Part shown: in pieces, positions 9,859-62,982 of the stretch
Layout of the letters: the number at the start of each line of letters is the position of its first letter
Numbering within the stretch: the first letter of the stretch is position 1
Assembly (NCBI GenBank): GCA_964016885.1
Contig: OZ024764.1
Coordinates: 29,078,001-29,142,000 of the forward strand
Length of the DNA stretch: 64,000 nucleotides
From: Eledone cirrhosa
Taxonomy: Eukaryota
Direction: 5' to 3'
Made by a program: the position numbers and the translations under genes
Notes under the pieces: generated by a model
What the model was told of the DNA's origin: nothing
The model's input: only the letters and a program-made list of their open reading frames with translations
Database searches by the model: none

Positions 9859-12046
9859 GAAACAAACTACCTGCATCAGTTATTATACTTTTATAACACC
9901 GCTATATTACCTACATGAAAGAGGTAAATATTTATTTCTCTTGTCTTCTTAAATGTATAGAACATTTTTCTTATATATATTCTTAACATAGCTAGGACCG
10001 TTTATTATTTACTAGTCTCTACTCCTAGGACTTTGCTGGTCTCATGTCCCCTCCATCAACACACACTCGGTAGAAAGCTGGTCGTCGGAGGTAAAGTGGC
10101 CCTGATTACAGGTCTAGTATTGAAGCCTTTCGGCTTGAGCCTTGCTGATGCCGACAGAGTTCCTGTGGTAGTTTTGGTAGCACAGGTGACATTTTATTGT
10201 GTTTAGGTACCGGCTAGTGCAGACACAGAGAGCACAACCAGGTGGTGAGCTGGCAACGACCAAGTGTAGAGGGCCAGCTTTGAAATTCGAGCGACGGAGT
10301 GAACTAGTAAAAGAGGCAGGGTAAGCAGCATTGGTTCTAACGGTGGGACTAGAACGGAGGTTGGGTGGTGCTGGGGGTGGGCTAACAGCTAACAGTTGTA
10401 GGAGTGGTGGGGGTTTGGTAGGATTAATTTTTACATCTGTCTGTGAACTCTTGAAAAAGCAACATACAATTGTCCAGGGTTAAATACTTGCTCAGGGAGC
10501 AACAGACCCACTTTATCATGTATTTGACCATGGTTCTTGTTGATTGTCATGGCATATGACAGTCTTAATGGAAACTGGGGTCTTTCCAAAGTAAAAGGGA
10601 TGTTGGCACCACTGGGGGATAACTTCAGTCTTGGGATCAAAACACACCTGCCAATCAAAGGACTATAGATATGAGAAGCTTTGATAAAATGTTTATGCAG
10701 TTCTACTACTTCTAATCTTGTGCCATTACATAATCTGTTCTGGATTGAAATATTCCATAGAAGCATTATTATTGATCCTGCTTATAATTGGAGTTTGTGA
10801 GGCGGCATCCCAGAAGGTGTAAGCAAGTTCATTTAGCTTGAACCAGGCAGCAAGGGTCCCTGCATTTCTACCACAACCTGAGCATTGCCTCTTTGAAAGT
10901 AAACTCTGTTTGTTCTCCAGGTGTGTGGCTAGGCTGTATACTGTATGTGATGTACCATGAAGCTTAAATTCCGAGAGACACGACACTGCTTCTGGCTGAG
11001 ACACATACCTGCAACAAAGATAGGTTCTTATTTCATCATGGTTGTGTTGGTTCTGAGCCTCATTAGGTAATGAATTATTCGTTACTTCTATAGATGTACA
11101 ATCATGCCCCATGTAACATATTTAAAGAGGTACTTGACACTTTTTACAGAAGCGCAAACTTCAACATTAATATGTGCACAATATTTCTTAAGCAAAAAGG
11201 CATTAAATGACACAACATTCCTGTTATCTACTGAATGTCATCCAATTTACACTGCAGTTCCTGTCTTGCACCTCCTGTACTCTGGGTATCCATTTAGGTT
11301 CAATAATGTTTCCCTTCTGTAGGTTTTTGGATAGTTCTTTTGGAAAAATCCATTTTGTATAAATGGGGGAAAAGGGTTTCCAGAACCACATGGCCTGTGG
11401 ATCATAAACTTTTAAACCTGCTCATGTAGTACTGGATCATCTTCCAATGCAGGTATTTCGGCTGACACGATTCTGTCAATGTCTTCTCTGTTTCTTATCT
11501 TGTCTTCATTTTTTAAGGCTCAGTGTTATCATCTGTTTAGATAATTCATTAAACCATTATACTCATCCACTCACAATTGGGCTTGATTGTTCCTCAAATA
11601 TTGAAGCCTGCATCCCTCTACTTTCATATAGGCTTCCACTAAATACTGCTAAAATAATTTACCTGCCCTATATATCGCACTAAGTCCTCCTCTATATGCT
11701 ATACAGTATATGTAATACTCCTGCATTGTCAGTCTATTGCAAACACAGGTCCTGCATTCCTCTCCATGTCACTATGCCACCAAAATTCACCATTATGGGT
11801 CGGTCATGAGGTCCAACTGGCATGAATTATGTGATATATTCTGAGGAGGATGGTCTTTAGGAAAGATGATAATATCTCTTTGTACAGGTGGTGTGCCCTC
11901 AATCCCCCACAAAACAACAGCTATCATTACTAGTTGGTAAATTAGAGCAGCTCATATCTGATCCTCTTCTAAATCTTAATTCACAGTTCTGTACACGACA
12001 ATTTTCTCTTCTTGCACTTTGCTGTTTGAGATGAAACAAGATAGCA

Positions 12047-14037: not shown

Positions 14038-14976
14038 AGTTCAAAGAGAAACCACCATCCTACCTGAAATATTATGTTATCATATTAAATATTTCTTATA
14101 CTGTCATGTTTTTTCTTTAAAATGATTGCATCTCAATAAAGTGAAGAAAACTATTATATACTGTTGTTATATCATTATACTTTAGTTTTAACATTTCTAT
14201 GTGTATAAATATAATGTATGTAAGTGTGTTTGAAAATATATAATAATAATATGCATGTTTGAAGCAGGGTTCAACTGAAATATCTATATGAAGCAGGGTT
14301 CAACTGAAATATCTATAGGTTGACTTTGTTTTCATCCTTATGAGGTCGATAGAATAAAGTACCAGTAATTGCTGGCCTTGTGCCAGAAACAATTATTTGG
14401 TTGTACTTCCAATCTGTGCTACACACCTTCGTTCCCATCAATAATATATAACTGGCCATATTGTGGTGTATTTTCTGCAGGTTACAGAGATGGGGGTGTA
14501 TTGATATGTTTGACCCTGAATATGAAATCTATACGGGCCTCTGCCGGGTGGTAACACCAAATGAAGTGAAATAAATGTAGTTTTAATTGCAGATGTTTCT
14601 GTGAAATCAACTGCTTCCTGGCCTCTTTCAAAGAGATTTCTCAGTCTCTCAGGGTATATTTGCAATGGTGGCAACACAACCTTTCCTTTATTACAACAGT
14701 TACAATTTTCATTTCTAAATTTCAAAGCTCCACAGTGATCACACGAAACATTCATATCACTAATATGAAATTCTTCTACATTTCCATTAATATTAATTGT
14801 TGGCCAATTTCTCTTACGACGCTCATTATCCATTCTTCTCTGTCTGAATGTTTTCCATTCTAAGTCTATTTGCATGGAATAATTATATTCTGTTGTTTAT
14901 TATGTAATTAAATAGCTCTGTACAATACATAGAGCATTCTTCTTTTCTTTACCTTTTCTATGGAAATACAAGAACA

Positions 14977-15049
<73 letters not shown>

Positions 15050-17180
15050 ATATACATAAACAAGACTGTTATTGCTCCAACCAGTCTATTTACCTTTGAT
15101 AACTATCCTAAATATAAATACGCCTATACCATACATACATATATCATATATGTTTTTGATGCCGTGGTATAGCAGAGATAAGTAAGAAGAGAAAAGAAAA
15201 TGAAAATGAGAAAAAAAAAGAAGTAAGAAGTCGGGGGAGGGACAGACACTTCACCCCAGTCTAAGTGGTCCCTCAGCTGCAACCTGTGGAAGAAACGTAA
15301 AAGCGTTACCTCGGAGCAAGGCCAGAGACACCTGCTACAATAGTCGCCCCTCCTCATGAGGCTCCTGTCGTCTTTCCTCCCGACTTTATGGAGGAAATCA
15401 GCAGTACAGGGACCAAGAGTGGAAGAGGTGAGTCAGGCCTTGGTACTATCTTACTATCCTTTGCATTGCGGGGTGTGGAGCCTAGGTTTGTGGCTGTAGC
15501 TATATTTGAACTTTTATATGAAATTTCAGTTTTATATTTTTCACATCTTAAAACGTAATCTTAGTCTTTTGCAGCTCATCTTGTTTCATCTCGCAGCACA
15601 CGATTTGGGAACCACTGCTCTAGAGATAGAAAAAGTATATTTTATGCAGGGCTTCCCTGAGACATAAAAACTATTTCAAGAGATCGACATGGGTAGAAAG
15701 GTTGAGAAATGCTGCACAATGTTCTTTGATTTTTGTTCACCTTTAAATAATCATGTATAAAATATCGGGTGTGCAAGATTTCATGAAAAGGTATAACATT
15801 ATTTATGCTGATCTTGCAGGGACTAGCTCCAATTGAGAGTTGTACCAATTCCCACTAAACTCGAAACTCCTGGACAATATATACATATCTTTATAAGTTC
15901 CTGTGTATTGTGTCGTTGTATAATGAAACATAAATATATACCATGCATGTCAGTCAGATTTGAACTCACTATATTTGGCGTTTTATAGATATAATTTGTT
16001 TGTTAAAACAATTGATTAAATAATAACTAAATAAAATTAATTCTACAATCCTGGATAGGGAATGAACTTATAACTTCATAATAGAAGCCATCTATTCGAG
16101 CAGTATTGCCATCTAAGCCACCAGGTTACTTACAGAACTTCATTCAAATATAAAATATAAAATATATGCCAGACATAGTGAGTTGGAATCTGACTGATTA
16201 GTTGGTCATTGTCCCAGCCAACAGTTTAAATCGCCAACCAGTAGGTGACATCGACTAGGTTGGGAAAACTTGGTTAAGTAGCTCCAGTTATTGCTACGTT
16301 AGACATATTCAAGACTTATCGACACCGAATGGAAGAAAGGTAAAGTTGAACTCAGAGTAAAGAACTGGAAAAATACTGCAAAGAATTCTATCTGATGTTC
16401 TAACAATTCTACCAAATTACCTCATGTATATATATTTATATCTAGAGATAAGAAGAAAACTGAAAGAAAGAAAAAAAAAAAATGAAACCTTATATGTAAC
16501 CCATGACCAGGATTGAAACCGAAACCAGGACTACCACCATCTCTGGTATCACCCACCAGACAACCATGAAAGATACAAAAATCTGCTTTTTTAATATTTA
16601 TAAGCCTACTTTCAATATTAAAGTAAATAACATGTGGTGTTGTTCATGCCTTTCTCTATGTTATTGGTAAAAAATAAAGTATTTAAACCTCAAATTTTGT
16701 TATTCAAATATGCTTGCTTATGTAATTATAAATGTCGCAGAATACACACACATATATAGATGTGAAAATATTCAGGACCCCAACGGCTGTGCTACTGCCG
16801 TTTCGACATCTATATATATATCTTTTAGTCCTAGGCTCTTTCAGCGCAGAAAGAATTCTCCAATGATCACAACCAGCTAATGGTGCCCAGTGGAAGCACT
16901 TTAGTCTAATTATAACCCCAACGATCACGATTAGCGGCGGCTTTTTCGAGTCTGAGGTTGACTGCCAGATATATATATCTATATATATATATATATTTTT
17001 ATACTTTGCTAGAATCCCGGAGAACAACAGAAAGATGCTGAGTTCAGAGTTTAAAAAACATGTCCCCCTTTAATATAAAAACAATCCGAGTCTTGTAAAA
17101 GTGTTATTACTGTAATATAAAGTAAAAACCCTTTATTTAAACAAAGCTGCGATGCAGCGATCATCAAAGCAAACCCCAAA

Positions 17181-20100
17181 ATGTAAACAAACTTCTCGCA
17201 GGTGCTGCCAGATACACGATAACATGTGTATACGAAGTGTAACAGGGAGTTGTGTCGTATTATATGACTTTCAAATTGACCCCTATTATATTCAAATTAT
17301 CCCCTGTGGGGCGTGCACACCACGTTGAGAATCCCTCATAAATAAATATATGTGAGTGTGTTGCTATGACTGCTATTTCTAGCAGGTTTACTGCAGTCCT
17401 GTAGACGCACAACAAAAACCGGAAGTGGCAGCCATTAAAAAACTTTGGCTTAAAATCAGCCAAAAGATTTTCAATAATAGTAAAATTTTATTTTTGACAA
17501 GGACGATAACTTTTGTCTTACTTAATCGCAAAAATCGAGGCAAAAATTTTGAGGGTGTGCAGTTTACACGCTAAAAATAAACCTGCTAGAAATAGCAGTC
17601 ATAGCAACTCACATATATTTATATATCATATATATATATATATATGATATATATATGGACACTTTAGAAATAGCAGCGAATAACAGAAAGGACACACACA
17701 TATATATATATGCCCCAGCACACACACATATATATATATACACACACACACACATATATATATATGCCCCAGCATACACACACACACACACATATATATA
17801 TGCCCCAGCATGGTCTTGGACGATCGTCTAACTAAGGCCAATAATAAAATACTTCAAAATAAATTAAACACCCCTAAATCCGGGGTTACAACTTGGATTA
17901 CTTAAAAGTCAGTAAAGCTGTAAAGATTCTATATTGTAAATAGGTGGTCGCATGTTCGAATCCGGGCAAATCCCGAGAAAAATAACAAAAAGAAGGACAA
18001 TGTAAAAATAGCAGCCATAGACGAGAGGAGGACACACACACAAACACACACACATGTATATATATATATATATGTGTGTCTGTGTATGTGTTTGGCTGCT
18101 ATATATATATATAGCGGTCAACACACACACACGTACATATATAAGTGTGTGTGTTTGGCTGATATATATATATATATATATATATGATATATAAATATAT
18201 GTGAGTTGCTATGACTGCTATTTCTAGCAGGTTTATTTTAGCGTGTAAACTGCACACCCGCAAAATTTTTGCCTCGATTTTTGCGATTAAGTAAGACAAA
18301 AGTTATCGTCCTTGTCAAAAATAAAATTTTACTATTATTGAAAATCTTTTGGCTGATTTTAAGCCAAAGTTTTTTAATGGCTGCCACTTCCGGTTTTTGT
18401 TGTGCGTCTACAGGACAGCCAGAAACCTACTAGAAATAGCAGTCATAACAACACACTTATGTATATTTATATATCAGGGATTCTCAACGAAGGGTACACG
18501 CCCCACAGGGGGCAATTTGAATTTAATAGGGGCCAATTAGAAAGTGATATAATACGACCAAACTTCCAGTTACACTTTGTTCACATGTTATCGTGTATCT
18601 GGCAGCAGCTACGAGAAGTTTGTTTATATTTTGAAGTTTGTTTTGATCATCGCGGCATCGTAGCTTTGTTTAATTAAAACATTTCTACTTTATATTACAG
18701 TAGTAACACTTTTACAAGACTCGGTTTATTTCTATATTAAAGGGGAACATAAACCTAATTTTTAAACGTTGAGGTGGGGCATGGAGCAAAAAAGGTTTGG
18801 AACTACTGAAGACAACAAATCATCGTTTTTATTAATGTAAACAAACTTCTCGCAGGTGCTGCCAGATACACGATAACATGTGTATACGAAGTGTAACAGG
18901 GAGTTGGGTCGTATTATATGACTTTCAAATTGACCCCTATTATATTCAAATTATCCCCTGTGGGGCGTGCACCCCACGTTGAGAATCCCTCATAAATAAA
19001 TATATGTGAGTGTGTTGCTATGACTGCTATTTCTAGCAGGTTTACTGCAGTCCTGTAGACGCACAACAAAAACCGGAAGTGGCAGCCATTAAAAAACTTT
19101 GGCTTAAAATCAGCCAAAAGATTTTCAATAATAGTAAAATTTTATTTTTGACAAGGACGATAACTTTTGTCTTACTTAATCGCAAAAATCGAGGCAAAAA
19201 TTTTGAGGGTGTGCAGTTTACACGCTAAAAATAAACCTGCTAGAAATAGCAGTCATAGCAACTCACATATATTTATATATCATATATATATATATATGAT
19301 ATATATATGGACACTTTAGAAATAGCAGCGAATAACAGAAAGAACACACACATATATATATGCCCCAGCACACACACATATATATATATATACACACACA
19401 CACATATATATATATATGCCCCAGCATACACACACACACACACATATATATACATATATATATATATATATGCCCCAGCATGGTCTTGGACGATCGTCTA
19501 ACTAAGGCCAATAATAAAATACTTCAAAATAAATTAAACACCCCTAAATCCGGGGTTACAACTTGGATTACTTAAAAGTCAGTAAAGCTGTAAAGATTCT
19601 ATATTGTAAATAGGTGGTCGCATGTTCGAATCCGGGCAAATCCCGAGAAAAATAACAAAAAGAAGGACAATGTAAAAATAGCAGCCATAGACGAGAGGAG
19701 GAAACACACACACATGTATATATATATATATGTGTGTCTGTGTATGTGTTTGGCTGCTATATATATATATAGCAGTCAACACACACACACGTACATATAT
19801 AAGTGTGTGTGTTTGGCTGATATATATATATATATATATGATATATAAATATATGTGAGTTGCTATGACTGCTATTTCTAGCAGGTTTATTTTAGCGTGT
19901 AAACTGCACACCCGCAAAATTTTTGCCTCGATTTTTGCGATTAAGTAAGACAAAAGTTATCGTCCTTGTCAAAAATAAAATTTTACTATTATTGAAAATC
20001 TTTTGGCTGATTTTAAGCCAAAGTTTTTTAATGGCTGCCACTTCCGGTTTTTGTTGTGCGTCTACAGGACAGCCAGAAACCTACTAGAAATAGCAGTCAT

Positions 20101-20678
20101 AACAACACACTTATGTATATTTATATATCAGGGATTCTCAACGAAGGGTACACGCCCCACAGGGGGCAATTTGAATTTAATAGGGGCCAATTAGAAAGTG
20201 ATATAATACGACCAAACTTCCAGTTACACTTTGTTCACATGTTATCGTGTATCTGGCAGCAGCTACGAGAAGTTTGTTTATATTTTGAAGTTTGTTTTGA
20301 TCATCGCGGCATCGTAGCTTTGTTTAATTAAAGCATTTCTACTTTATATTACAGTAGTAACACTTTTACAAGACTCGGTTTATTTCTATATTAAAGGGGA
20401 ACATAAACCTAATTTTTAAACGTTGAGGTGGGGCATGGAGCAAAAAAGGTTTGGAACTACTGAAGACAACAAATCATCGTTTTTATTAATGTAAACAAAC
20501 TTCTCGCAGGTGCTGCCAGATACACGATAACATGTGTATACGAAGTGTAACAGGGAGTTGGGTCGTATTATATGACTTTCAAATTGACCCCTATTATATT
20601 CAAATTATCCCCTGTGGGGCGTGCACCCCACGTTGAGAATCCCTCATAAATAAATATATGTGAGTGTGTTGCTATGAC
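17181..20678 (+). repeat. Tandem array of a 1654-bp fold-back unit (2 full copies plus a partial third)
   Basis: atgtaaacaaacttctcgcaggtg starts at 17181, 18835 and 20489. Each unit contains inverted arms around a ~200-bp unique core. Confidence 0.95.
18475..18808 (+). mobile_element. hAT-type non-autonomous element (~334 bp); second copy at 20129-20462
   Basis: Termini cagggattctcaac ... gtttggaactactg are imperfect TIRs of the Charlie type. No clear 8-bp TSD. Confidence 0.7.
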
Positions 20679-20800
20679 AAATATATTCAGAAAGAGATAT
20701 TTCTCCACGCCCTCAGTTATCTCGTCTTCATTCCGTTTCTATATATATATTTTTTTAATAAATAAAATTCTAACTATAAGTATGACTAATTTACACAGTA

Positions 20801-20954
20801 GAGTTGCGCTCTGTGTATGGCGCTGCACGTAACGTTTCGGGCTTCGCTGTCGTACTTCGGTATGGCATGACCATTCTATGTGTCTGAAGATCGAATCGTT
20901 GCGGCGGCAGCCCGGCTTTATGCTGGCCTGCGTCCCCGCCTCGCATTGAGTTTT
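20801..20954 (+). ncRNA. Candidate structured small RNA gene, copy 1 (family unassigned)
   Basis: GC-rich island with tataag at 20775, a tgtcgtac-TTCG-gtatggca hairpin, B-box-like agatcgaatc, a 3' stem-loop and a T4 run. Confidence 0.55.
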
Positions 20955-22542
20955 ACTAAAAAATTCGCCGAGTTATCGTTTGAATTACTTGCCCCTGATT
21001 GGAACTATTCTCGTTTGTTGTCATTCTTCTTTATTGAATTAAACTCTTAACATCGTTTGGATTTACTCGTGTAATTTGATAGAATCAGTCTGGATATTAT
21101 ACTAATGGTGAGAGGTATGTAATGTTTTATTTGCCGTATATACACTCACAGACATACATTATTATATGCCTTTCATCCTTATGGGGTCGATAAAATAAAG
21201 TACCAGTAATGCACTGGATAATTGCTGGCCTTGTGCCAAAAGTAGAAACAATTATTCTATATACAGAAAGATTCTAGAGACGTACATATTGTTTTATTTA
21301 AACCTAAATACACACACAAAACTAGATTTATATATATATAAATGTTCTTTAGCTGAGGTAAAATACCCTCTAATTTACCTATACGAACGCTTTATTTGCC
21401 ATGTATATTTTAATTCATTGCTAAACACTCGAAAATACAGTCTTAGATATATATTAACATTCTTTAGTGTATGCATTCACCTCTATAATCCATACACTGG
21501 AAGAAACGTTTCCTATCTAGATCAATATACACATATAAAGCTACATTTATATATACACCTTCATTCTTCTAAAGAGGTATGTAATGTTTTAGTTGTCCCT
21601 TAAATTCATCGATAAACACGTAGTTATTCCTGAGACACAAGAATATATTTCACTACCCTTCATATACAGGAGGAATGTTAGAGACGTATATGTATAATAT
21701 AACCGTCTTTTTACTAAGAATAATAACTAAAACCCCTTCATACTCAGGAAAACTAAACATTCTATCTACATACACCGCCTTCTGTCTTATTCATAGTGGT
21801 ACATTGTTAGAAGTACCACTTCATATTCAGCCAACCTTCTCTCGACACTATCATTGCATATTTTAAAATCCACTTCTTTATATACTATATTTAGGTTTAA
21901 TCAATACATATATTGATGATTGGAATCATGGTCTTAAGATTACCCAAATCGATACTAACTATTACAAATACAGATCTCTCTAAGGCTATGTTACCTACAT
22001 ATTAATTGTTCTGAAAAGATGCATCAGTCTTCTCTATGGAGCAGAAACGTGGCCCCTCACAAAGACGATTGACAGCAGTGCCCTGAGGACCATCCCAGCC
22101 TTACTCTCATTCAACGCAGTAGCACCTGGTCGGCTCTACCCATGATGATGCCGGTCTAGTCTAACAAGAATAGATGTACAAAATACTCGAATATAAGGTG
22201 ACCCTCCTCCCTATCTTATGCCTGAGAAGTGGGCAAAAATGCGAACCTTCTTTACGTAGAATTTGAAGTTGGCGAAAATGGTCAAACTATTGACTCCCTA
22301 TATAAATCAACCCTTTACTACATATTCCCTGGCTTCTATTCGTGTATATCCCGTTATATATGTACAAAACACTAGCAGTTCCTTAATGGCTATATATCCC
22401 GTTATATTTATATAGAAAGAGAAACGGAAAGAAAACGAGATAACACTCGGAATATGTCGTGTTATCTTGCTTTCTTTCTGTTTCTTTTTTTTTTTAAAAA
22501 GAAGTAAAATGTTAGCTATAAGTATGCCTATTTGACTCTGTA

Positions 22543-22701
22543 GAATTGCGGCTTGTGCGTGGCGCTGCACGTAGCGTTTCTGGCTTCGCTGTCGTACTTC
22601 GGTATGGTATGACCACTCGATCGTGTCTGAAGTTCGAATCGTTGCGGGGGTCGGCCGGGACCGTTGCAGGCTGGCCTGCTCTCCCCCTCGCATGAGTTTT
22701 T
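22543..22701 (+). ncRNA. Candidate structured small RNA gene, copy 2
   Basis: tataag at 22517, cTTCGg hairpin, agttcgaatc and a T5 run. Has an 11-nt deletion in the 3' stem relative to copy 3. Confidence 0.55.
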
Positions 22702-24509
22702 GTCAAACAATTTGACGAGAGTTATCTCCCTTTGATTTGAGTTATTTGCCCTTTGTTGTGATTGAACTACTTCCGGTTTGTGGAACTCTTCTTCCTTTGT
22801 TGTCATTTCTTGAAGCTGTAACATCATTCTATTTACTCTGGGACTATTAACGATATCTGTTTGGATTTTACGTTCGTGTAAAGAGGTATGTAAAGTTTTA
22901 TTTGCCGTATATACACACATTATTGAGACACAAAAGTAAGTTGCCATGTCTTTTAAAGAAACAAAACTAAATATATACACGCAGCTACCTCTTCTAACTA
23001 AACATACATGTTACCCTCCTCTATTATGAAACAAAACTAACCATGATCTGTATATATACACCTCCTCTAACATGTTACAACTAAATCTTCTCTCGATACT
23101 ATATACATACTTGTAAGGAAATATAACCAAGCTTCCTCTCTATATACATTTTATCTTCTGTATATAAACCTTATACCTGAATACACAGATATTCTATATA
23201 CAAGAAGACACTTTTTCACGTCAATACACAAATACTTCAGGCATATTTATGTATTAGCCGTAAATTTATTCTAAACCATGTAGAGGAAGAATCCTGGGGA
23301 CATACGTACACATGAAGCTATATTCATATATAAACCGTCTCCCTTCTATCATAACAGATACTTATGAGGCGCAATATACAAACTTGTTCATACTGGAATA
23401 ATAGACATGAAAATAAACCTTCTCTAGACATATGAATATAGAAGCTAAACCATACAGTTATATTTTATATCTAACGAAGCATGGTAGCTCCATTACTCTG
23501 CCGTAACACTCCTTACTACTACTTCTAGCATCCTCACCTGCTTGATAGCTACATCATCCATATATAAACGTTCTTCACTAGATACAAAACTAAACCTTTA
23601 TATATACACAACTAACCTATTTTATATTCCTAAGGAACAGTACCAGACCTGGAGACTACTACAACCCGATCTCAAGAAGAAAGGTAAATAAATTGTGAAA
23701 TAAAAGAATAAACCAGTATTTTCCTTTGTTGCCTTATTATTTACTCCCTGTATATATACACACACTAGACACCTCTTACACTGTAGGAAGACAAAAACCT
23801 TCTGTCACTGTATACTAGATTCATATTATATAAATTATTTCCTAGATACACCTATTAGAAACAAGCCATCTCTATATACAGGTAAATAACATCAATGTAG
23901 ACATGTCTGTATTCTATAGAACATATCTAAACCCACATTGTGTGTGTCTCTTTATATTATACACGTGTATGTAAAAACCTGGAAGTGATCATACATATAT
24001 AAGATAAGAGGTTTTGATCTGTACATACAGATCAAAACATTCTCGCTAGATACTACACATATGTCTCTTAGGAAACTACTACTATTGTTCTTCTAGTTGT
24101 GTATAAAGATCTCACAGTAGAACGTGTACATGATTCCTAAGAAGCAACAGAGCTAACTATAAATACAAAGAAATTTAGTGTTCTTTACATACACACAAAG
24201 CTTACTTCATGTCTATAATATACCTTCTTCTCTATATTGGAAGAAGTACCTCCATTATATATTGAAGTTGTGTTCAATAGAGTACAGTATGTAGAACCAT
24301 ATGTACGCAGTTACCCTTTTCTTTAAAGGATACATCAATACCCTGTTCTCCTCTAGACAGGGATACTCACCATATAAACACTTTAGTGTATATAAAGCAT
24401 ATCTTCATTGTAAATTTAGAAGTTACACTACACATATAAAGACAACAACCTACATACATATTAATACCCTTATATCTCTAGACTACTGTATTATATAAAT
24501 ATAGCTAAG

Positions 24510-25320
24510 GAATTAAAGATGTATGTATATTTATACATACATATGCAGTATATGTATGTATATATATATACATATGTATGTATATATACATATGTATGTA
24601 TATATATATATATGTATGTATATATATATATATGTATGTATATATACATATGTATGTATATATATACATATGTATATATACATATACGTATGTACATGCA
24701 TATGTATATATAGATACATATGCATTATATACATACGTATGTATATATACATATGTATATATATATATACATATGTATATATATACGTATGTATATATAC
24801 ATACATATGTATGTATATATACATACGTATGTATGTATGTAAGTACATACGTGTGTATGTATATACATATGTATGTACTTACATACGTATGTACTTACAT
24901 ATATATGTACATACATACGTATGTATATACCTACATATGTATGTACATACAGACGTACGTATATAAATACATACGTATGTACATACATACGTATGTATAT
25001 AAATACATACATTCGTATGTAATACATACGTATGTATATATGTATACAGACATACGTATGTATGCATACATAGGTATATACGTATGTATACATACATACG
25101 TATGTACATACATATGTATGTATATACATACGTACGTATGTATATACCTACATATGTATGTACATACATACGTATGTATATATATACAGACGTACGTATA
25201 TAAATACATACGTATGTATATACATATATACATTCGTATGTATATACATACGTATGTATATATATATACATACGTATATATGTATACATACATATGTATA
25301 TATACATACATATGTATGTT
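24510..25320. repeat. Compound (TA)/(TACG)/(TATG) microsatellite
   Basis: Direct inspection. Confidence 0.95.
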
Positions 25321-27387
25321 TATATAAATATAGCTAAGGGGTTAAACTTTTTTCTCTACATAGAGATAAGTATGTCTATTCTATAGGATACTATTACCTT
25401 AAAACCATGTGTATATATACACTTACTTCTATAGAATCCATACATATTAACACCCTTATATCTCTAGGCATATGTATACATACAGAAAGAAATGGCCCCA
25501 CTAGAATACTGCATTATATACATTACTTTCATGAAAGATGATTCGAACTGAATTCATACTTCTATTCCTATATACATACTGGGAGAGATATAGAATACAA
25601 ATTTATTCTATATACAGAAGGAAATAAACTTACTAGAATACTCTATATATACACATTATAAATGTTTATAATATGAAACTTCTTTATTAATACCTATATA
25701 CTTACTGGTAAGTATGAGAGAGATATAGAATATCCACATAACCTCTTACAGGAGATATAGAATACCTATATACACAGTTTCCATTCTCAAAGAAACTTCT
25801 CTATAGCACCACACTTACTTCTTTCAGTAAGAAGGATGTTTCTTACTGGGATTCTATAGTGTAGATACACATTAATTAATCTAGTCTATATATACACTTC
25901 TTTCAAGAAGGATGTTTCTCACTAATTACATAATAATTGAATTCTCTCACATGTTAATACCTTTTTATCTCTAGGCATGTGTTTAACAATCCACTAGTTA
26001 TATATACACAGCTGTTAATTCCTATATATTTAATATGAATGAAAGTTAAACGATCTACATGTAAGATACTACCTGTGTATATATATAAGAAACGAAAATG
26101 TGAAATAAAGATCAATAAATAAACTACATTTTGTTGTTGGGGTTATTTTATTTCTTGAGACGACTGTGTGTATCTACACACTAAGTTGAGCTGGCGGAGA
26201 TCTTCAACATACCTGGAAAGAAGCAGAGGGTATTAATAAAAACAATCCAGATTACACAGCTCTAACACCAATACTTTTCTAGAGGCAGAAATGAAACCTC
26301 TTTATCATGAACAGTTTAGTTTCTTAGGAGAGTGGGTATAGGGCTGTGAAATACAGTTTCTTATATGCCTCTAGATAAGGTATTACTGTATATATGGGTT
26401 TTTTTTTTTATTATAGAGGAGGATAGTAAATATAAGCCTTCTAGATGTTACAGAGGAGTCTCTACATACAAAAAGTAGATTCTTTGCTGTGTACACCGAA
26501 TATATAGAAGTGTATTATATACACACGTGTGTACAATATTTATATAACAAGGCAGTGTATTCTATAAAGAAACTGTATGTATGGGGGGTTGTTTTCCTCT
26601 ATTGAGAAGGATAGTGAATATAATGTCTTCTACATACAATAAATAGATGCCTTGATAAAATATCCAGAGTTTTATGTAAGTATCCTCGGGAAAAGTAGTA
26701 GAGAAGAGGGTTTTAACTTTGCCTTGTGTGTATGTAGATGCTGCATATATACGATGCTTCGAAGTGTGTTTATGTATAGAGAGAGGGTCTGTATTCTATA
26801 TACTACAGTTTCTTATATAGCTCCGGATACTGTGTATAATGAGGAGATATACCTTTCTTCTAAGTAAGTATATACAGAGAAGGTGTAATAGAGATACGAT
26901 TATAATATAAATATATAGTTGATATGATGTGTGCAAGAGAGAATGCTGAGTTGGAGTAAAGGTGGTGATGCCGATGTAACTCGACGTAGAAATTACGATG
27001 GTATAGTATAAAGAGGAAAGTAACATGTATGTTTAGTTAGAAGAGGTAGCTGCGTGTATATATTATTTGTTTTGTTTCTCGGAAGGAGGTTTAGTTCTGT
27101 GAAGAGTGTTTAGAATAAATTTAAAAGACATGGCAACTAAAACATTACAAGAATGTATATTTCCAAGATAATGAAATGTATTTTTGTGTCTCAATAATAT
27201 CCGTGAGTGTGAATAAAACTTTACATACCTCTTTACACGTAAAATCCAAACAGATATCGTTAATAGTCCCAGAGTAAATAGAATGATGTTACAGCTTCAA
27301 GAAATGACAACAAAGGAAGGAGAGTTCCACAAACCGGAAGTAGTTCAATCACAACAAAGGGAGATAACTCTCGTCAAATTGTTTGGC

Positions 27388-27557
27388 AAAAACTCATGCG
27401 AGGGGGAGAGCAGGCCAGCATAAAGCCAGCCTGCAACGGTCCCGGCCGACCCCCGCAACGATTCGAACTTCAGACACGATCGAGTGGTCATGCCATACCG
27501 AAGTACGACAGCGAAGCCAGAAACGCTACGTGCAGCGCCACGCACAAGCCGCAATTC
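27388..27557 (-). ncRNA. Candidate structured small RNA gene, copy 3
   Basis: Reverse-complement copy with TATA at 27583-27578, an intact gcaggctggc-tttat-gctggcctgc stem and a T5 run. Confidence 0.58.
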
Positions 27558-29139
27558 TACAGAGTCAAATAGGCATACTTATAGCTAACATTTTACTTCT
27601 TTTTAAAAAAAAAAAGAAACGGAAAGAAAGCAAGATAACACGACATATTCCGAGTGTTATCTCGTTTTCTTTCCGTTTCTCTTTCTATATAAATATAACG
27701 GGATATATAGCCATTAAGGAACTGCTAGTGTTTTGTACATATATAACGGGATATACACGAATAGAAGCCAGGGAATATGTAGTAAGGGGTTGACTTATAT
27801 AGGGAGTCAATAGTTTTGTAGCAAGGACCATTTTCGCCAACTTCAAATTCTACGTAAATAAGGTTCGCATTTTTGCCCACTTCTCAGACATAAGATAGGG
27901 AGGAGGCTCACCTTATATTCGAGTATTTTGTACATCTAGACCGGCATCATCATGGGTAGAGCCTACCAGGTGCTACTGTGTTGAACGAGAGTAAGGCTGT
28001 GGGCTGATGTTTTAGATGGTCCTCAGGGCTCTGCTATCAATCGACTTTGTGTGGGGCCACGTTTCTGCTCTATAGAGGAGAAGACTGATGCATCTTTTCA
28101 GAACAATTAATATGTAGGTAACATAGCCTTAGACAGATCTGTATTTGTAATAGTTAGTATCGATTTGGGTAATCTTAAGACCATGATTCCAATCATCAAT
28201 ATATGTATTGATTAAACCTAAATATAGTATATATAAAATCTGTTCTCAGCTTCTCACCAGTTTCTTTGGAATTAAGTGTCTGAGAGTATAAGACTCTCCC
28301 TGGATAGGACACTGGTCTATCGCAGGATTAACTCCTCAGCTGAGTGTACTGATGAAATGTTTTTAAAGAATTACATACAGAACTTCCAAGCTGTGAGAGT
28401 TATATGTATGGACCCATAACTCCCAAGGGAGTCATAGAGGCAACGCATTGACATACAGTGTTTCTAGGGCTCTTTTTAAAACCTGGCAGAGCCCAGGTCT
28501 GAATACAGCAGATTTCTTCTAGAGAAGTGTAGAGGAAGAATTCACCCCAGTACTAGACTGGTACTTTTTTTATCAACCTTGAATGGCTGAAAGGCAAAGT
28601 TGGCCTTGATGGGATTTGAATTCAGACAGCTGAAATGAAGGCATTCTATCTGTTACATTTATATATACATACTTTCTTTGTCTAATAAACAAAACTAAAT
28701 CTTCTCTAGACACACACATAAAGTTACACTTATATAAACCTTCTTCTGTACAAACGAGGGTCAACTGAAAAGCTCATAGGCTGACTATGAAGGAGTGATG
28801 CTAGAACAGTGAAATCTTGCATGCATTAATTTCAACTCTCCTTACTAATAACTGCATTGTTTCTTTCCATTTGGCCAGTCAGCCCTCTTACATATATACT
28901 TCTGATTCTCTTTTTTACTAAGAAACAGAATTAAACCTTCTCTACACAGGAAAATATTACTGACATCTTCAAAGGAATGTAAATAAACTTCCTTATCTAG
29001 CGACGAACATGTGAAATAAACCAAACTTTTGCTTTTTCATTTCTTCTAAGAAACAAGACAGCTAATGCCAATAAGTGTGTATACAAAAAAAATGTCTACA
29101 CACTTCAGGAAAAGAAAAATTTGTATAAATATATATATT

Positions 29140-32240: not shown

Positions 32241-32423
32241 GTATGTTCATGGTTGCATTTGTTCATGTCCCATTGACTTAGCGGTTCATCAAAATGAAAT
32301 AGATAAAATAAGTACAAGACTTGAAAAAAAGGTTATGTACTGGTGTTTGATATGATAGTAAATGTCTTTTAGGTGCTGCCCCAGCATGGCCACAGTCTAA
32401 ATACTCAAACCAGTAGAAGAATG

Positions 32424-34112
32424 CAGTGCCCCAGCGTGGCCACAGTAATAGAAGGCAGTGCTCCAGTATGACCGCAATCTAATGACTGAAACCAGTAAAA
32501 GAAGGCAGTGCCCCAGCGTGGCCACAGTAATAGAAGGCAGTGCTCCAGTATGACCGCAATCTAATGACTGAAACCAGTAAAAGAAGGCAGTGCCCCAGCA
32601 TGGCCACAGTAATAGAAGGCAGTGCTCCAGTATGACCGCAATCTAATGACTGAAACCAGTAAAAGAAGGCAGTGCCCCAGCATGGCCACAGTAATAGAAG
32701 GCAGTGCTCCAGTATGACCGCAATCTAATGACTGAAACCAGTAAAAGAAGGCAGTGCCCCAGCATGGCCACAGTAATAGAAGGCAGTGCTCCAGTATGAC
32801 CGCAATCTAATGACTGAAACCAGTAAAAGAAGGCAGTGCCCCAGCGTGGCCACAGTAATAGAAGGCAGTGCTCCAGTATGACCGCAATCTAATGACTGAA
32901 ACCAGTAAAAGAAGGCAGTGCCCCAGCGTGGCCACAGTAATAGAAGGCAGTGCTCCAGTATGACCGCAATCTAATGACTGAAACCAGTAAAAGAAGGCAG
33001 TGCCCCAGCGTGGCCACAGTAATAGAAGGCAGTGCTCCAGTATGACCGCAATCTAATGACTGAAACCAGTAAAAGAAGGCAGTGCCCCAGCGTGGCCACA
33101 GTAATAGAAGGCAGTGCTCCAGTATGACCGCAATCTAATGACTGAAACCAGTAAAAGAAGGCAGTGCCCCAGCGTGGCCACAGTAATAGAAGGCAGTGCT
33201 CCAGTATGATCGCAATCTAATGACTGAAACCAGTAAAAGAAGGCAGTGCCCCAGCGTGGCCACAGTAATAGAAGGCAGTGCTCCAGTATGACCGCAATCT
33301 AATGACTGAAACCAGTAAAAGAAGGCAGTGCCCCAGCGTGGCCACAGTAATAGAAGGCAGTGCTCCAGTATGACCGCAATCTAATGACTGAAACCAGTAA
33401 AAGAAGGCAGTGCCCCAGCGTGGCCACAGTAATAGAAGGCAGTGCTCCAGTATGACCGCAATCTAATGACTGAAACCAGTAAAAGAAGGCAGTGCCCCAG
33501 CGTGGCCACAGTAATAGAAGGCAGTGCTCCAGTATGACCGCAATCTAATGACTGAAACCAGTAAAAGAAGGCAGTGCCCCAGCGTGGCCACAGTAATAGA
33601 AGGCAGTGCTCCAGTATGACCGCAATCTAATGACTGAAACCAGTAAAAGAAGGCAGTGCCCCAGCGTGGCCACAGTAATAGAAGGCAGTGCTCCAGTATG
33701 ACCGCAATCTAATGACTGAAACCAGTAAAAGAAGGCATTGCCCCAGCGTGGCCACAGTAATAGAAGGCAGTGCTCCAGTATGACTGCAATCTAATGACTG
33801 AAACCAGTAAAAGAAGGCAGTGCCCCAGCGTGGCCACAGTAATAGAAGGCAGTGCTCCAGTATGACCGCAATCTAATGACTGAAACCAGTAAAAGAAGGC
33901 AGTGCCCCAGCGTGGCCACAGTAATAGAAGGCAGTGCTCCAGTATGACCGCAATCTAATGACTGAAACCAGTAAAAGAAGGCAGTGCCCCAGCATGGCCA
34001 CAGTAAAAGACGGGAGTGCTCCAGTATGACCGCAATCTAATGACTGAAACCAGTAAAAGAAGGCAGTGCCCCAGCATGGCCACAGTAAAAGACGGGAGTG
34101 CCCCCCAGCATG
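32424..34112. repeat. 82-bp tandem satellite (~20 copies) made of two related subunits (32+50 bp)
   Basis: Period 32461 to 32543. Both subunits begin agaaggcagtgc(c/t)ccag and resemble the SINE tail immediately upstream. Confidence 0.96.
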
Positions 34113-41863: not shown

Positions 41864-42037
41864 CTATCGGTAGAGGCTCGGACGCCATGCTTTCTAGCAT
41901 AGTTATGTCCCTTTAAGGTCTGAGTTCAAATCCCATTGAGGTTAACTTTGCCTTTCATCCTTACCAAGTCGATAAAATAAAGTACCAGTAATGTACTGGA
42001 TAATTGCTGGCTTTGTGCCAAGAGTAGAAACAATTAT
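41864..42037 (+). mobile_element. tRNA-derived SINE (family of 1401)
   Basis: tatcggtagag...gagttcaaatccc...gcctttcatcctt...gtcgataaaataaagtaccagt. Confidence 0.75.
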
Positions 42038-42134
42038 TATATACAGCTCGGAAATTTTTTTTCCTTGAGCTATTTTAATTATAAGGGACTATTGTGAGTT
42101 TTTAACTCAATATATACTTTTGATAGATATATAT

Positions 42135-47949: not shown

Positions 47950-48171
47950 CTGTCAACGACGACAACAACAACAACAACAACAACATTAACAACAACAATG
48001 GTTTTTAATTCAGGCACAAGGCCAGCAATTTTTTTTTTTGGGGGGGGGGGGGGGGGATTAAATCGACCCCAGTTAATTACTGGTGTTTTATTTTATCGAC
48101 CCCGTAAGGATGAAAGGCAAAGTTAACCTCGGCAGGATTTGAACTCAGACCATAAAGGTCCGTAACTCTAT

Positions 48172-50927
48172 GCAATAGTATATATAGAGTAATGTAAATG
48201 TTATGTGAGATATTATGTGAGGTAAAGCCTTTACTGTGAAAATACAATAGTATATATAGAGTAATGTAAATGTTATGTGAGATATTATGTGAGGTAAAGC
48301 CTTTACTGTGACAATACAATAGTATATATAGAGTAATGTAAATGTTATGTGAGGTATTATGTGAGGTAAAGCCTTTACGGTGAAAATACAATAGTATATA
48401 TAGAGTGATGTAAATATTATGTGAGATATTATGTGAGGTAAAGCCTTTACTGTGAAAATACAATAGTATATATAGAGTAATGTAAATGTTATGTGAGATA
48501 TTATGTGAGGTAAAGCCTTTACTGTGACAATACAATAGTATATATAGAGTAATGTAAATGTTATGTGAGATATTATGTGAGGTAAAGCCTTTACTGTGAC
48601 AATACAATAGTATATATAGAGTGATGTAAATATTATGTGAGATATTATGTGAGGTAAAGCCTTTACTGTGAAAATACAATAGTATATATAGAGTAATGTA
48701 AATGTTATGTGAGATATTATGTGAGGTAAAGCCTTTACTGTGACAATACAATAGTATATATAGAGTAATGTAAATGTTATGTGAGATATTATGTGAGGTA
48801 AAGCCTTTACTGTGACAATACAATAGTATATATAGAGTGATGTAAATATTATGTGAGATATTATGTGAGGTAAAGCCTTTACTGTGAAAATACAATAGTA
48901 TATATAGAGTAATGTAAATGTTATGTGAGATATTATGTGAGGTAAAGCCTTTACTGTGACAATACAATAGTATATATAGAGTAATGTAAATGTTATGTGA
49001 GATATTATGTGAGGTAAAGCCTTTACTGTGACAATACAATAGTATATATAGAGTGATGTAAATATTATGTGAGATATTATGTGAGGTAAAGCCTTTACTG
49101 TGACAATACAATAGTATATATAGAGTGATGTAAATATTATGTGAGATATTATGTGAGGTAAAGCCTTTACTGTGACAATACAATAGTATATATAGAGTAA
49201 TGTAAATGTTATGTGAGATATTATGTGAGGTAAAGCCTTTACTGTGACAATACAATAGTATATATAGAGGGATGTAAATATTATGTGAGATATTATGTGA
49301 GGTAAAGCCTTTACTGTGAAAATACAATAGTATATATAGAGTAATGTAAATGTTATGTGAGATATTATGTGAGGTAAAGCCTTTACTGTGACAATACAAT
49401 AGTATATATAGAGTAATGTAAATGTTATGTGAGATATTATGTGAGGTAAAGCCTTTACTGTGACAATACAATAGTATATATAGAGTGATGTAAATATTAT
49501 GTGAGATATTATGTGAGGTAAAGCCTTTACTGTGACAATACAATAGTATATATAGAGTAATGTAAATGTTATGTGAGATATTATGTGAGGTAAAGCCTTT
49601 ACTGTGAAAATACAATAGTATATATAGAGTGATGTAAATATTATGTGAGATATTATGTGAGGTAAAGCCTTTACTGTGAAAATACAATAGTATATATAGA
49701 GTAATGTAAATGTTATGTGAGATATTATGTGAGGTAAAGCCTTTACTGTGACAATACAATAGTATATATAGAGTAATGTAAATGTTATGTGAGATATTAT
49801 GTGAGGTAAAGCCTTTACTGTGACAATACAATAGTATATATAGAGTGATGTAAATATTATGTGAGGTAAAGCCTTTACTGTGACAATACAATAGTATATA
49901 TAGAGTAATGTAAATGTTATGTGAGATATTATGTGAGGTAAAGCCTTTACTGTGAAAATACAATAGTATATATAGAGTGATGTAAATATTATGTGAGATA
50001 TTATGTGAGGTAAAGCCTTTACTGTGAAAATACAATAGTATATATAGAGGAATGTAAATGTTATGTGAGATATTATGTGAGGTAAAGCCTTTACTGTGAC
50101 AATACAATAGTATATATAGAGTGATGTAAATATTATGTGAGATATTATGTGAGGTAAAGCCTTTACTGTGACAATACAATAGTATATATAGAGTAATGTA
50201 AATGTTATGTGAGATATTATGTGAGGTAAAGCCTTTACTGTGAAAATACAATAGTAAATATAGAGTATTGTAAATGTTATGTGAGATATTATGTGAGGTA
50301 AAGCCTTTACTGTGAAAATACAATAGTATATATAGAGTAATGTAAATGTTATGTGAGATATTATGTGAGGTAAAGCCTTTACTGTGACAATACAATAGTA
50401 TATATAGAGTAATGTAAATGTTATGTGAGATATTATGTAGGGTAAAGCCTTTACTGTGACAATACAATAGTATATATAGAGTAATGTAAATGTTATGTGA
50501 GATATTATGTGAGGTAAAGCCTCTACTATGAAAATACAATAGTATATATAGAGTAATGTAAATGTTATGTGAGATATTATGTGAGGTAAAGTCTTTACTG
50601 TGAAAATACAATAGTATATATAGAGTAATGTAAATGTTATGTGAGATATTATGTGAGGTAAAGCCTTTACTGTGACAATACAATAGTATATACAGAGTAA
50701 TGTAAATGTTATGTGAGATATTATGTGAGGTAAAGTCTTTACTGTGAAAATACAATAGTATATATAGAGTAATGTAAATGTTATGTGAGATATTATGTGA
50801 GGTAAAGCCTTTACTGTGAAAATACAATAGTATATATAGAGTAATGTAAATGTTATGTGAGATATTATGTGAGGTAAAGCCTTTACTGTGAAAATACAAT
50901 AGTATATATAGAGTAATGTAAATGTTA
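48172..50927. repeat. 72-bp tandem satellite, about 38 copies (intronic)
   Basis: Period 48241 to 48313. Confidence 0.97.
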
Positions 50928-50990
50928 AAGGGGTTAAAGAGTGATGATGATGATGGTGTGTGTGTGTGTAAAAACAAATAAATGACCTAC

Positions 50991-51064
50991 CCCTTTCCAT
51001 ACAAATTTTTCTGGATCATTAATTAAGCTGTTTTCCAGTAGTTTAGAAGCTGGGAACATCATCA
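50991..51064 (-). CDS. Aa_trans-family transporter exon 8
   Basis: ctgtag / gtaggt, phases 1-0; (V)MMFPASKLLENSLINDPEKFVWKG. Confidence 0.92.
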
Positions 51065-52127: not shown

Positions 52128-52196
52128 CTGGATATGTGAAAAACATTGATAAACAAAGAAAGGACTTGACTATCATGGCAAAGTCCAGCGATTTCC
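52128..52196 (-). CDS. Aa_trans-family transporter exon 7
   Basis: ttacag / gtgagt, phases 1-1; (G)KSLDFAMIVKSFLCLSMFFTYP(V). Confidence 0.93.
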
Positions 52197-52289
52197 CTGT
52201 AAAAAACAAGAAAAAGAAATAAATTTGGCAGAAAAAAGTTATATCTACCTGTCTATCTACCTATCACTCTACCTACCTGTCTATCTACC

Positions 52290-55200: not shown

Positions 55201-56318
55201 ATCACTCTATCTACCTCTCTGTCACTCTATCTACCTCTCTGTCACTCTATCTACCTCTCTGTCACTCTATCTACCTCTCTGTCACTCTATCTACCTGTCT
55301 ATCACTCTATCTACCTCTCTGTCACTCTATCTACCTCTCTATCACTCTATCTACCTGTCTGTCACTCTATCTACCTCTCTGTCACTCTATCTACCTCTCT
55401 GTCACTCTATCTACCTCTCTGTCACTCTATCTACCTCTCTGTCACTCTATCTACCTCTCTGTCACTCTATCTACCTCTCTGTCACTCTATCTACCTCTCT
55501 GTCACTCTATCTACCTCTCTGTCACTCTATCTACCTCTCTGTCACTCTATCTACCTCTCTGTCACTCTATCTACCTCTCTGTCACTCTATCTACCTCTCT
55601 GTCACTCTATCTACCTCTCTGTCACTCTATCTACCTCTCTGTCACTCTATCTACCTGTCTATCACTCTATCTACCTCTCTGTCACTCTATCTACCTGTCT
55701 GTCACTCTATCTACCTCTCTGTCACTCTATCTACCTCTCTGTCACTCTATCTACCTCTCTGTCACTCTATCTACCTGTCTGTCACTCTATCTACCTCTCT
55801 ATCACTCTATCTACCTCTCTGTCACTCTATCTACCTGTCTGTCACTCTATCTACCTCTCTGTCACTCTATCTACCTGTCTGTCACTCTATCTACCTCTCT
55901 ATCACTCTATCTACCTCTCTGTCACTCTATCTACCTGTCTGTCACTCTATCTACCTCTCTATCACTCTATCTACCTCTCTGTCACTCTATCTACCTCTCT
56001 ATCACTCTATCTACCTCTCTGTCACTCTATCTACCTGTCTGTCACTCTATCTACCTCTCTATCACTCTATCTACCTCTCTGTCACTCTATCTACCTGTCT
56101 GTCACTCTATCTACCTGTCTGTCACTCTATCTACCTCTCTATCACTCTATCTACCTGTCTGCCACTCTATCTACCTGTCTATCACTCTATCTACCTCTCT
56201 ATCACTCTATCTACCTGTCTGTCACTCTATCTACCTCTCTATCACTCTATCTACCTCTCTATCACTCTATCTACCTCTCTATCACTCTATCTACCTCTCT
56301 ATCACTCTATCTACCTGT
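52290..56318. repeat. 20-bp tandem satellite, about 200 copies (intronic)
   Basis: Unit [ga]tcactctatctacct[cg]tct. Confidence 0.98.
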
Positions 56319-56503
56319 CTACCTGTTTATCCATCAGTCTACCTGTCTGTGTACTTCTCTCCCTGTCTGTGTACTTCTCTCCCTGTCTGTCTGTCCGTCT
56401 ATCTACCTGTCTATCCATCTGTGTCTATTTCTCTACTTTTCTTTCTGTCTGCCTACCTGTCCATCTAGCTTAAGGCATACCTGTCTACCTGTGTCTTTCT
56501 TAC

Positions 56504-56552
56504 CTTTCGGAAGATTCAAAGTGATAATAGGATTTGTTGCTTTCCCAAATGA
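56504..56552 (-). CDS. Aa_trans-family transporter exon 6
   Basis: caacag / gtaag, phases 0-1; SFGKATNPIITLNLPK(G), the hallmark FG.....ITLNLP motif. Confidence 0.94.
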
Positions 56553-56800
56553 CTGTTGGAAGATATTGAAGCGGAGAACAGGAGCACGGGATGTGTAGCA
56601 ACAGCAAGACATTGGTTAGGAAGAGAGAGAAAGAGAGAAAATTTATGAATTTATTACAGGGAAAAATATCATATGTTATTAGAGCCAGGAAAATAGGGGC
56701 AGACATCACTGTGATGTTCATGGGTTCAGTTTTGAAGAAGATGATATATATATAGATAAATATATATAGAGAGATATATTAATATAGATAGATATATATA

Positions 56801-62949: not shown

Positions 62950-62982
62950 ACAAATTTACCAAAGAATGAAATAATGTATTAC

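Follow-up and report, generated by a model that had tools for sequence, protein, structure and literature searches.

A probable multigene family of structured RNA polymerase III-type genes in an octopod genome

What are the three GC-rich islands that interrupt an AT-rich stretch of the Eledone cirrhosa genome? The window considered here is a 64,000-nucleotide stretch of contig OZ024764.1 (assembly GCA_964016885.1, positions 29,078,001 to 29,142,000 of the forward strand). The original prediction, made from the letters of this window, held that the islands are copies of a functional noncoding RNA family with a layout like that of RNA polymerase III (Pol III) genes, possibly a divergent vault RNA. 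We conclude that they represent a real, probably functional and uncatalogued Pol III RNA family. On balance, the sequence evidence leads us to favour a multigene family whose 150-200-nt RNAs would fold into a branched rod and act by binding proteins.

All of the motifs originally named are present in all three islands, at the positions first given for them. The islands have a GC content of 57-60%, as against ~26-41% in the 1-kb bins of the region. The sequence TATAAGTATG starts at 20775, 22517 and 27583(-), in each case 31 nt before the G of ttGcg (20806, 22548 and 27552), and we predict that transcription starts at this G, the first base of GCGGC. Copy 1 (20806..20954, + strand), which belongs to a subfamily we denote A, would then give a 149-nt Pol III transcript, although its start may fall up to ~9 nt farther upstream. 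Copies 2 (22548..22701, +) and 3 (27388..27552, -) belong to subfamily B, with predicted transcripts of 154 and 165 nt; copy 3 is full-length, while the 3' hairpin of copy 2 carries an 11-nt deletion. Copy 1 is thus of a different subtype from copies 2 and 3, with which it is ~82% identical.

The predicted strand and the Pol III-like layout were both borne out: the islands have a TATA-like box, an A box, a B box and an oligo-T terminator. The TATA-like box, TATAAGTA, occupies -31/-24 (20775..20782 (+) in copy 1, 22517-22524 in copy 2, and 27576-27583 (-) in copy 3). It is followed by an A-box-like motif, TGGCGCTGCACG (20818..20829 (+), 22560-22571, 27529-27540), which we compared with the D-arms of the genome's own tRNA-Asn and tRNA-Trp, and by a B-box-like motif, G(A/T)TCGAATC (20889..20897 (+), 22632-22640, 27460-27468; in its extended form 20888-20897, 22631-22640 and 27469-27460), in which A replaces T in copy 1. 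The T-runs that we predict to be terminators lie at 20951..20954 (+), 22697-22701 and 27388-27392. Farther upstream, all three copies share a block with the core TTCCGTTT (20716..20740 (+), 22461-22485, 27615-27639).

The islands are the only copies of the family in the window, so the original count of three stands there, but it does not stand for the genome, which holds at least ~240. Our counts come from short motifs in one octopod genome, G000. A 21-nt motif common to A and B has 138 matches with two or fewer mismatches, compared with 3 for a reversed control. An older subfamily, D, to which we were led by a variant in contigs of public sequencing runs and on C8, has 38 exact motif matches on 11 contigs (control 0). 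Subfamily E, found via weak profile hits beside D, has 66 motif matches (control 1), and the same hits led to subfamily F, which is not counted. The total is a lower bound to which the three motif sets may contribute a slight overlap. The family therefore comprises at least five subfamilies (A, B, D, E and F) of ~150-200 nt each, every one of which has TATAAGTA ~31 nt before the predicted start, A- and B-box-like motifs and a T-run. A promoter pattern that allowed a gap of 13-20 nt matched 159 times (control 0), and the gap from TATAAGTA to AGAATTGCGGC is 17 nt in 99/100 of the genome matches listed, though the letters within it vary.

These subfamilies are chromosome-biased, and the older ones are decaying. 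The 100 A/B matches listed all fall on C8, C22, C23 and C25, where tandem A>B pairs have a spacing of 1.4-1.8 kb and B pairs that face inward mostly one of 5-11 kb. E2 genes are dispersed over small contigs with a density of about one per megabase. Deletions or insertions of long interspersed elements (LINEs) are found in many D and E copies; the D copies L282, L285 and L345 are truncated by an apparent 3' end with a (GAT)n tail, presumably that of a LINE. Outside this genome, a metagenome pattern scan returned 120 stretches, 80 of them with DNA, and the family model matched 0 of the 78 searched; a scan of viral contigs likewise gave 0 family matches. Contigs from four of five public runs, all of unknown kind, were compared with the family. 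Those of X1, X3 and X4 include its flanks, as expected of DNA, and a divergent subtype contig of higher depth in X3 extends 5' of the TATA-like box and is not used as evidence of expression; contig depth can neither rank genes nor equal true copy number. The one B-like contig in run X5 (organism B), of 151 nt, is too similar to show deep conservation.

We considered which type of Pol III gene the promoter resembles. The features of type 2 or hybrid genes are present, with one mismatch in the B box of A and of some D and E copies. The position of the TATA-like box agrees with that in the genome's own U6 and vault genes (about -30 to -33), and rodent 4.5SH genes have a TATA-like box, TTCAAGTA, at -31/-24, with a similarly placed box in 4.5SI genes, according to the available text of PMC7279448. 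A start a few bases earlier than predicted is possible, because in some copies of D and E an upstream GAAUU can pair with the 3' end; the predicted start itself is immediately preceded by ACTCAGTAG. The upstream block is present in all subfamilies but stands at a variable distance, 39-54 nt, from the TATA-like box. We rejected it as a proximal sequence element (PSE) of U6 or U1 type, since it differs from the ATGCAAAT-type block of the genome's U6 genes and from the DNA upstream of U1, and we rejected a type 3 (U6-like) gene, as there is no U6-type upstream element at a fixed TATA spacing. The family is also unlike the genome's U6 itself. Five of six U1 loci (L395-L400) have TCAGT ~56 nt upstream, a candidate octopod PSE core. 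ATGCAAAT-type octamers occur right after E2 genes, past the T-run (L329, L330, L331, L361), and recur in the tandem repeat downstream. In L388-L393 an inverted copy of the upstream block lies ~640-900 bp upstream of E2 genes, on the opposite strand. The DNA after it, beginning with ATACGTACC, is conserved and moderately GC-rich, and may be a second small gene with a common promoter block. By eye this stretch looks U1-like, but the likeness is not significant (112-375/500 shuffles score as high), and Rfam gives no hit.

If the islands encode structured RNAs, their fold should be both predicted and maintained. Single folds and alignments lead us to predict a common plan. It has a terminal stem (P1), a long arm (P2) formed between the B-box strand and the strand that follows the A box, and a bulged hairpin (P4), with a further hairpin (P3) that is optional. 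In copy 1, P2 (20828..20903, +) is predicted to pair 20828-20845 with 20886-20903 and to enclose a hairpin with a variable loop (20848-20867; 22590-22609 and 27510-27491 in copies 2 and 3), and a predicted 3' hairpin (20907..20931, +) corresponds to the upper part of P4, whose lower stem is absent in A. Copies 1 and 3 folded better than dinucleotide shuffles (z -2.96, 3/200, and z -2.99, 0/200, respectively), but copy 2, which has the 11-nt deletion, did not (z -0.77, 47/200).

Evidence of selection on pairing, in keeping with the original prediction, is clearest in subfamily E. There 98.8% of cells are paired, as against 35-42% in controls with slid partners; 4/38 pairs have changed on both sides; and the E values were attained in 0-1/500 runs when neutral evolution was simulated along the tree with full pairing at the start. 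Variation is 0.081 in paired columns and 0.229 in unpaired ones. In this model, the fold of E is kept under selection. Across subfamilies (28 hand-picked copies), P2 and P4 are 88.5% paired, compared with 27-45% for slid partners, and neutral simulation reached this value in 7 and 12 of 300 runs. Swaps from A-U to U-A and from A-U to G-C are seen, for example, between E and the rest, and C-G to U-A swaps occur as well. P1 was left uncounted in this comparison because MAFFT aligns it in differing registers. Selection on pairing shows more weakly across subfamilies than within E. Two structural details fared less well. The cUUCGg tetraloop deserves less weight than it was given, as the loop varies between and within subfamilies: UUCG is found in 29/29 A and 44/56 B copies, the other 12 B copies having UUAG or UUAU, and D has UUAU at 21/30 loci and CUAU at 6/30. 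Nor is the proposed compensatory change between gCgg/ccGc and gGgg/ccCc a coupled one, for 19/53 parsed B copies have ccGc with the all-G partner strand.

We then compared conservation of the core with that of the flanks. Among 24 position-sampled B copies, with the search motif excluded, the core distance was 0.042, compared with 0.070-0.074 upstream and 0.138 downstream, so that the core is 1.7-3x more conserved than its flanks, though it is CpG-rich. For E2 the core value is 0.054, against 0.077 and 0.218 in the flanks. Copies 1 and 3 differ at 11/100 positions in the first 100 nt of the core, 12/50 in the promoter and 32/132 downstream. From these sequences B and E appear to be constrained, while A, with copy 1, and many D copies appear to be decaying, a pattern of birth-and-death evolution. 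Within the window, copy 1 probably belongs to a lineage that is relaxed or dead, as would follow from the greater variation of subfamily A in the core than downstream and from its broken pairs; copy 2 is probably a damaged B copy, and copy 3 probably the best candidate for a working gene. Copies 2 and 3 do not count as independent, because each lies in one arm of a single inverted duplication of ~1.1 kb (21879-22938 and 27179-28233), in which the two B genes face inward.

Several observations weigh against a functional family. Our first estimate for B (core 0.029, flanks 0.08-0.15) was inflated, because its 30 loci were the best BLAST matches to the core, and the fairer contrast is only 1.7-fold with respect to upstream DNA. 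In subfamily A, non-CpG diversity is 0.033-0.037 in the core and 0.012 downstream, and 24/33 alleles at paired sites disrupt the pair. The E alignment comprises 16 of 30 E-type copies, after removal of 6 near-duplicates and of 8 with deletions or rearrangements, and the E structure was predicted from the same alignment on which it was tested. Across subfamilies the number of pairs changed on both sides is unremarkable (reached in 67 and 170 of 300 neutral simulations and in 191/500 shuffles). Gene conversion or recent duplication could imitate part of the conservation signal, because the copies have kilobases of flank in common as well. Finally, the evidence comes from a single genome. What stands of the proposed functional RNA family is a structured, RNA-like family with signs of selection on pairing and no Rfam match; the vault affinity, the cUUCGg loop, the compensatory pair and the number of copies do not.

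How might such RNAs act? From the biology of other Pol III genes, TFIIIC would bind the internal boxes and TBP would use the -31/-24 box, and the RNA would end in oligo-U and bind La. P1 stacked on P2 would form an imperfect duplex of ~25-30 bp. This duplex may engage double-stranded-RNA-binding or translation proteins, the weakest step of the scheme, proposed by analogy with snaR, which binds NF90 and ribosomes (PMC3045588, in the portion available), and with the EBERs, which bind La and PKR (bioRxiv 10.1101/2022.05.09.491269, likewise).

The main rival is that the genes belong to a non-autonomous DNA element several kilobases long, of foldback, Helitron or viral derivation, either as its cargo or as a functional component. 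Their Pol III activity or RNA fold would then help the element to spread or to evade silencing, and would not serve the host. The genomic context bears directly on this. Homologous DNA flanks both sides of the copies of every subfamily: in A, B and D the common stretch runs for ~190 bp upstream of the gene and for 200 bp or more downstream, and E2 copies on four contigs (C13, C17, C18, C25) are alike over 1.2-1.9 kb upstream and ~1 kb downstream, at 71-88% identity. This sharing of multi-kilobase flanks across four contigs, together with the spacing of about one gene per megabase on small contigs, favours a mobile element, as do inward-facing gene pairs around tandem repeats and the chromosome-biased subfamilies with their decaying older members. 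The inverted duplication in the window (21879..28233) is centred on a TA-rich satellite (24522-25332) and lies within an A > B > ... < B cassette (20679..28747), further copies of which are found at other C23 and C25 loci. Helitron helicase remnants stand beside the C25 cassettes, and tRNA-like parts within the long terminal repeats (LTRs) of Helenus elements provide a precedent in the accessible text of PMC10886601. Yet between different subfamilies only the promoter, the gene and ~200 bp downstream are alike. By eye, there was no tail, shared terminus or target-site duplication in 9 inverted pairs and the upstream alignments, a search that did not reach the outer ends of the E2 unit, which lie beyond the 3-kb stretches compared. 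No viral contig matches, and 50 open reading frames (ORFs) from the surrounding stretches include no transposase or convincing viral gene; their Pfam hits above cut-off are LINE reverse transcriptase, endonuclease and PHD domains, Pif1 (on C25 only), C2H2 fingers, and repeat-driven hits in one ORF. The flank pattern is still compatible with a mobile DNA cassette, and we regard the rival as a possible though clearly less probable explanation than a host RNA family.

Several other features of the window bear on its structure. Helitron-like remnants lie at ~10711-12012 and 14438-16096 and at L238, L245 and L249, with Pif1 2B domain hits in L245 and L249; they adjoin cassette copies on C25 only. 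Upstream of the B and D copies stands an inverted repeat in the DNA (22420..22485); its right arm is the upstream block, and it contains GAAACGGAAAG, which we take to resemble an interferon-response-type site. The downstream block of ~200 bp common to A, B and D (22702..22919, +) has repeated motifs like GAGTTATCTCCC, and within it (22755-22775) is ACTTCCGG, presumably resembling an ETS site; degenerate tandem repeats rich in A and T come after the block. The stretches 17060-20678, 32377-34104, 48077-51015, 52153-56598 and 61817-63124 hold nested duplications, both inverted and direct, immediately 5' of copy 1, and several long satellite arrays whose repetitive ORFs show no coding signal.

A related proposal shares the protein-binding step of the functional family. 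By analogy, the RNAs may be an octopod counterpart of the viral VA and EBER RNAs, that is, decoys for double-stranded-RNA-binding proteins such as ADAR or PKR-like sensors, spread by the cassette and turned over in an arms race. Cephalopods edit their RNA heavily, and if true this rather doubtful idea would give a handle on how that editing is tuned.

Alternatively, the main role of the genes might be that of chromatin boundaries occupied by Pol III, or of regulators of nearby multigene clusters, with the RNA secondary, in the manner of Plasmodium RUF6. Like the RUF6 genes that lie next to var genes and offer a precedent (PMC6974570, from the part of that paper available), they have A/B boxes and a high GC content in AT-rich surroundings; they are scattered one by one over small chromosomes; and C2H2 zinc-finger ORFs lie near two C25 clusters. 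Zinc-finger linkers were found in only 1/41 stretches scanned, however, and selection on base pairing implicates the RNA itself; we regard this alternative as improbable.

A somewhat smaller chance still attaches to a neutral, amplified array of tRNA-derived pseudogenes, in which structure is inherited and conservation is due to gene conversion. Subfamily A is indeed unconstrained, many D and E copies are deleted or interrupted by LINEs, and real tRNA, U1, U6 and SRP (signal recognition particle) genes are likewise amplified in this genome. The neutral array is opposed by the pair-preserving and two-sided changes in E, which go far beyond neutral simulation, by the fixed promoter spacing with drifting spacer letters, and by the lack of a cloverleaf to inherit. 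As a side observation, the housekeeping RNA genes form tandem arrays of ~30 (U6), ~20 (SRP), at least 90 (tRNA-Asn/Phe) and ~35 (U1) units, at C19:31.78-31.84 Mb, C12:42.10-42.13 Mb, C4:117.36-117.49 Mb, and on C2 and C1128.

A tRNA origin of the family, though perhaps likely, is weakly supported by sequence comparison and amounts to a lead. ARAGORN found 0 tRNA genes in the window and in 38/38 loci, the Rfam tRNA model gave no hit, and the family has no tRNA cloverleaf with an acceptor stem. Counting shuffles that score as high, likeness to the genome's own tRNA-Asn was 0/200 and 2/200 for E, to tRNA-Trp 2/200 for E, and to tRNA-Phe 2/200 for D and A, all among 64 comparisons with four tRNA isotypes. 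The likeness is confined to the box regions and a few E comparisons, and the family profile matches 0/8 references. An origin from an intron-containing tRNA-Ile was tested and dropped, and an Alu/SRP (7SL) origin was rejected (24-163/200 shuffles score as high against the genome's own SRP RNA).

The islands also match no catalogued RNA, as originally supposed: Rfam returned nothing at gathering level in the window, and nothing at E<=10 for the islands (A/B) or for D, E and F. At that threshold there is no match to 7SK, Y RNA, snRNAs or self-cleaving ribozymes, though divergent invertebrate members can escape the models; hammerhead and hepatitis delta virus-like ribozymes were dropped both by eye and for want of an Rfam hit. 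The suggestion of a divergent vault RNA is now very unlikely. In its favour are the A/B boxes, the upstream TATA, the 5'/3' stem and the pairing of the B-box strand with the strand after the A box, all of which resemble vault genes (PMC7058938, in the text accessible), and the genome has an MVP gene, on C24. An MVP exon of this 3.0-Gb genome shares 83% identity with Octopus bimaculoides, 79% with Argonauta and 72% or less with every other hit listed, which marks the genome as that of an octopod. But RF00006 has no hit at E<=10 in A/B or D/E/F, and a canonical vault cluster exists elsewhere: 14 above-cut-off RF00006 genes of two types in one tandem cluster at C3:221183987-221251257 (L061-L068), with the canonical TTAGC..GGTTACTTCG motif, a terminal stem, T-runs and an upstream TATA near -31. 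The family lacks this A-box/GGTTACTTCG motif and has extra P3/P4 arms, and its own model misses the C3 loci. From its sequence the C3 cluster is likely to be the true vault RNA locus of this octopod. It is a newly located locus of a kind already known, vault homologues having been reported from two lophotrochozoan lineages in the available part of PMC2770079.

The least probable reading, one we give almost no credence, is that of a tRNA-derived short interspersed element (SINE) or SINE source gene, which A and B boxes, hundreds of copies and a weak likeness to tRNA might suggest, but which the flanked, T-run-ended copies without A-tail or target-site duplication, unlike the abundant SINE nearby, oppose. 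A retroposed SINE is largely ruled out for the family, because the flanks travel with the copies and no tail or target-site duplication is seen; the copies examined have a homologous promoter and flank and end in a T-run. Hundreds of copies, the sign by which a SINE or transposon part was to be recognized, are indeed present and many are decayed, but they come with flanks and promoter of their own, as a retroposed SINE would not. The neighbouring SINE has a summed contig depth ~10^4 times that of the family, depth not being true copy number, and there is no likeness or complementarity between the family and this main SINE. A 3' fragment of a very abundant, tRNA-type SINE lies at 21167-21256, in the spacer behind copy 1, where it was copied with the cassette, and another at 41949-42046.

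Returning to a functional multigene family, we asked whether such a family has been described. No cephalopod family of this kind was found in the literature searched, which did not extend to most subscription journals, supplements and repeat databases, and repeat libraries or annotation supplements could already contain the element as an anonymous entry. In rodents, primates and Plasmodium, Pol III RNA families confined to one lineage (4.5SH, BC1, snaR, RUF6) regulate translation or gene-family expression. A large family with old and young subfamilies and a fold kept under selection gives concrete probes for experiments in octopus, and suggests how a Pol III gene might travel on a multi-kilobase inverted cassette.

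Among known systems, vault RNA (RF00006) has A/B boxes, an upstream TATA and paired 5'/3' ends in common with the family, which is longer, has extra arms and gives no hit to the model. VA RNA and BC1 are Pol III RNAs of 150-170 nt that act through protein binding. EBER is another RNA of that size and mode of action (bioRxiv 10.1101/2022.05.09.491269, in the portion available); no viral context was found around the octopod family, and the Rfam scan gave no match. The Helenus terminal-repeat retrotransposons in miniature resemble it in having tRNA-like sequence inside a repeated unit (PMC10886601, in the accessible text), whereas the octopod family showed neither a direct pair of LTRs nor a primer-binding site nor a target-site duplication of 4-5 bp, and its terminator comes directly after the gene. 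The Plasmodium GC-rich RUF6 genes are likewise a dispersed GC-rich A/B-box family in AT-rich DNA (available text of PMC6974570), but they comprise 15 members tied to var clusters, while for the octopod family linkage to zinc-finger clusters was rejected, linkers being found in 1/41 stretches scanned. Primate snaR genes encode structured Pol III RNAs that spread by segmental duplication with birth and loss of subfamilies (PMC3045588, as far as available); they are Alu-derived, number ~30 and have an oligo-A/oligo-U tail, as opposed to at least ~240 copies with no oligo-A here. By analogy, the closest organization is that of rodent 4.5SH, with hundreds of Pol III genes in multi-kilobase repeats. 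Both 4.5SH and 4.5SI are Pol III genes of restricted lineage with A/B boxes, and their -31/-24 box reads TTCAAGTA where the octopod family has TATAAGTA; no relation by sequence is expected. 4.5SI is tRNA-derived (PMC10137851, in its accessible text), and 4.5SH has hundreds of copies, each within a 4-5-kb repeat (PMC7279448, likewise). 4.5SH is, however, 7SL-derived and arranged in tandem arrays, whereas the octopod family consists of divergent subfamilies in dispersed inverted pairs and is unlike the genome's own SRP RNA.

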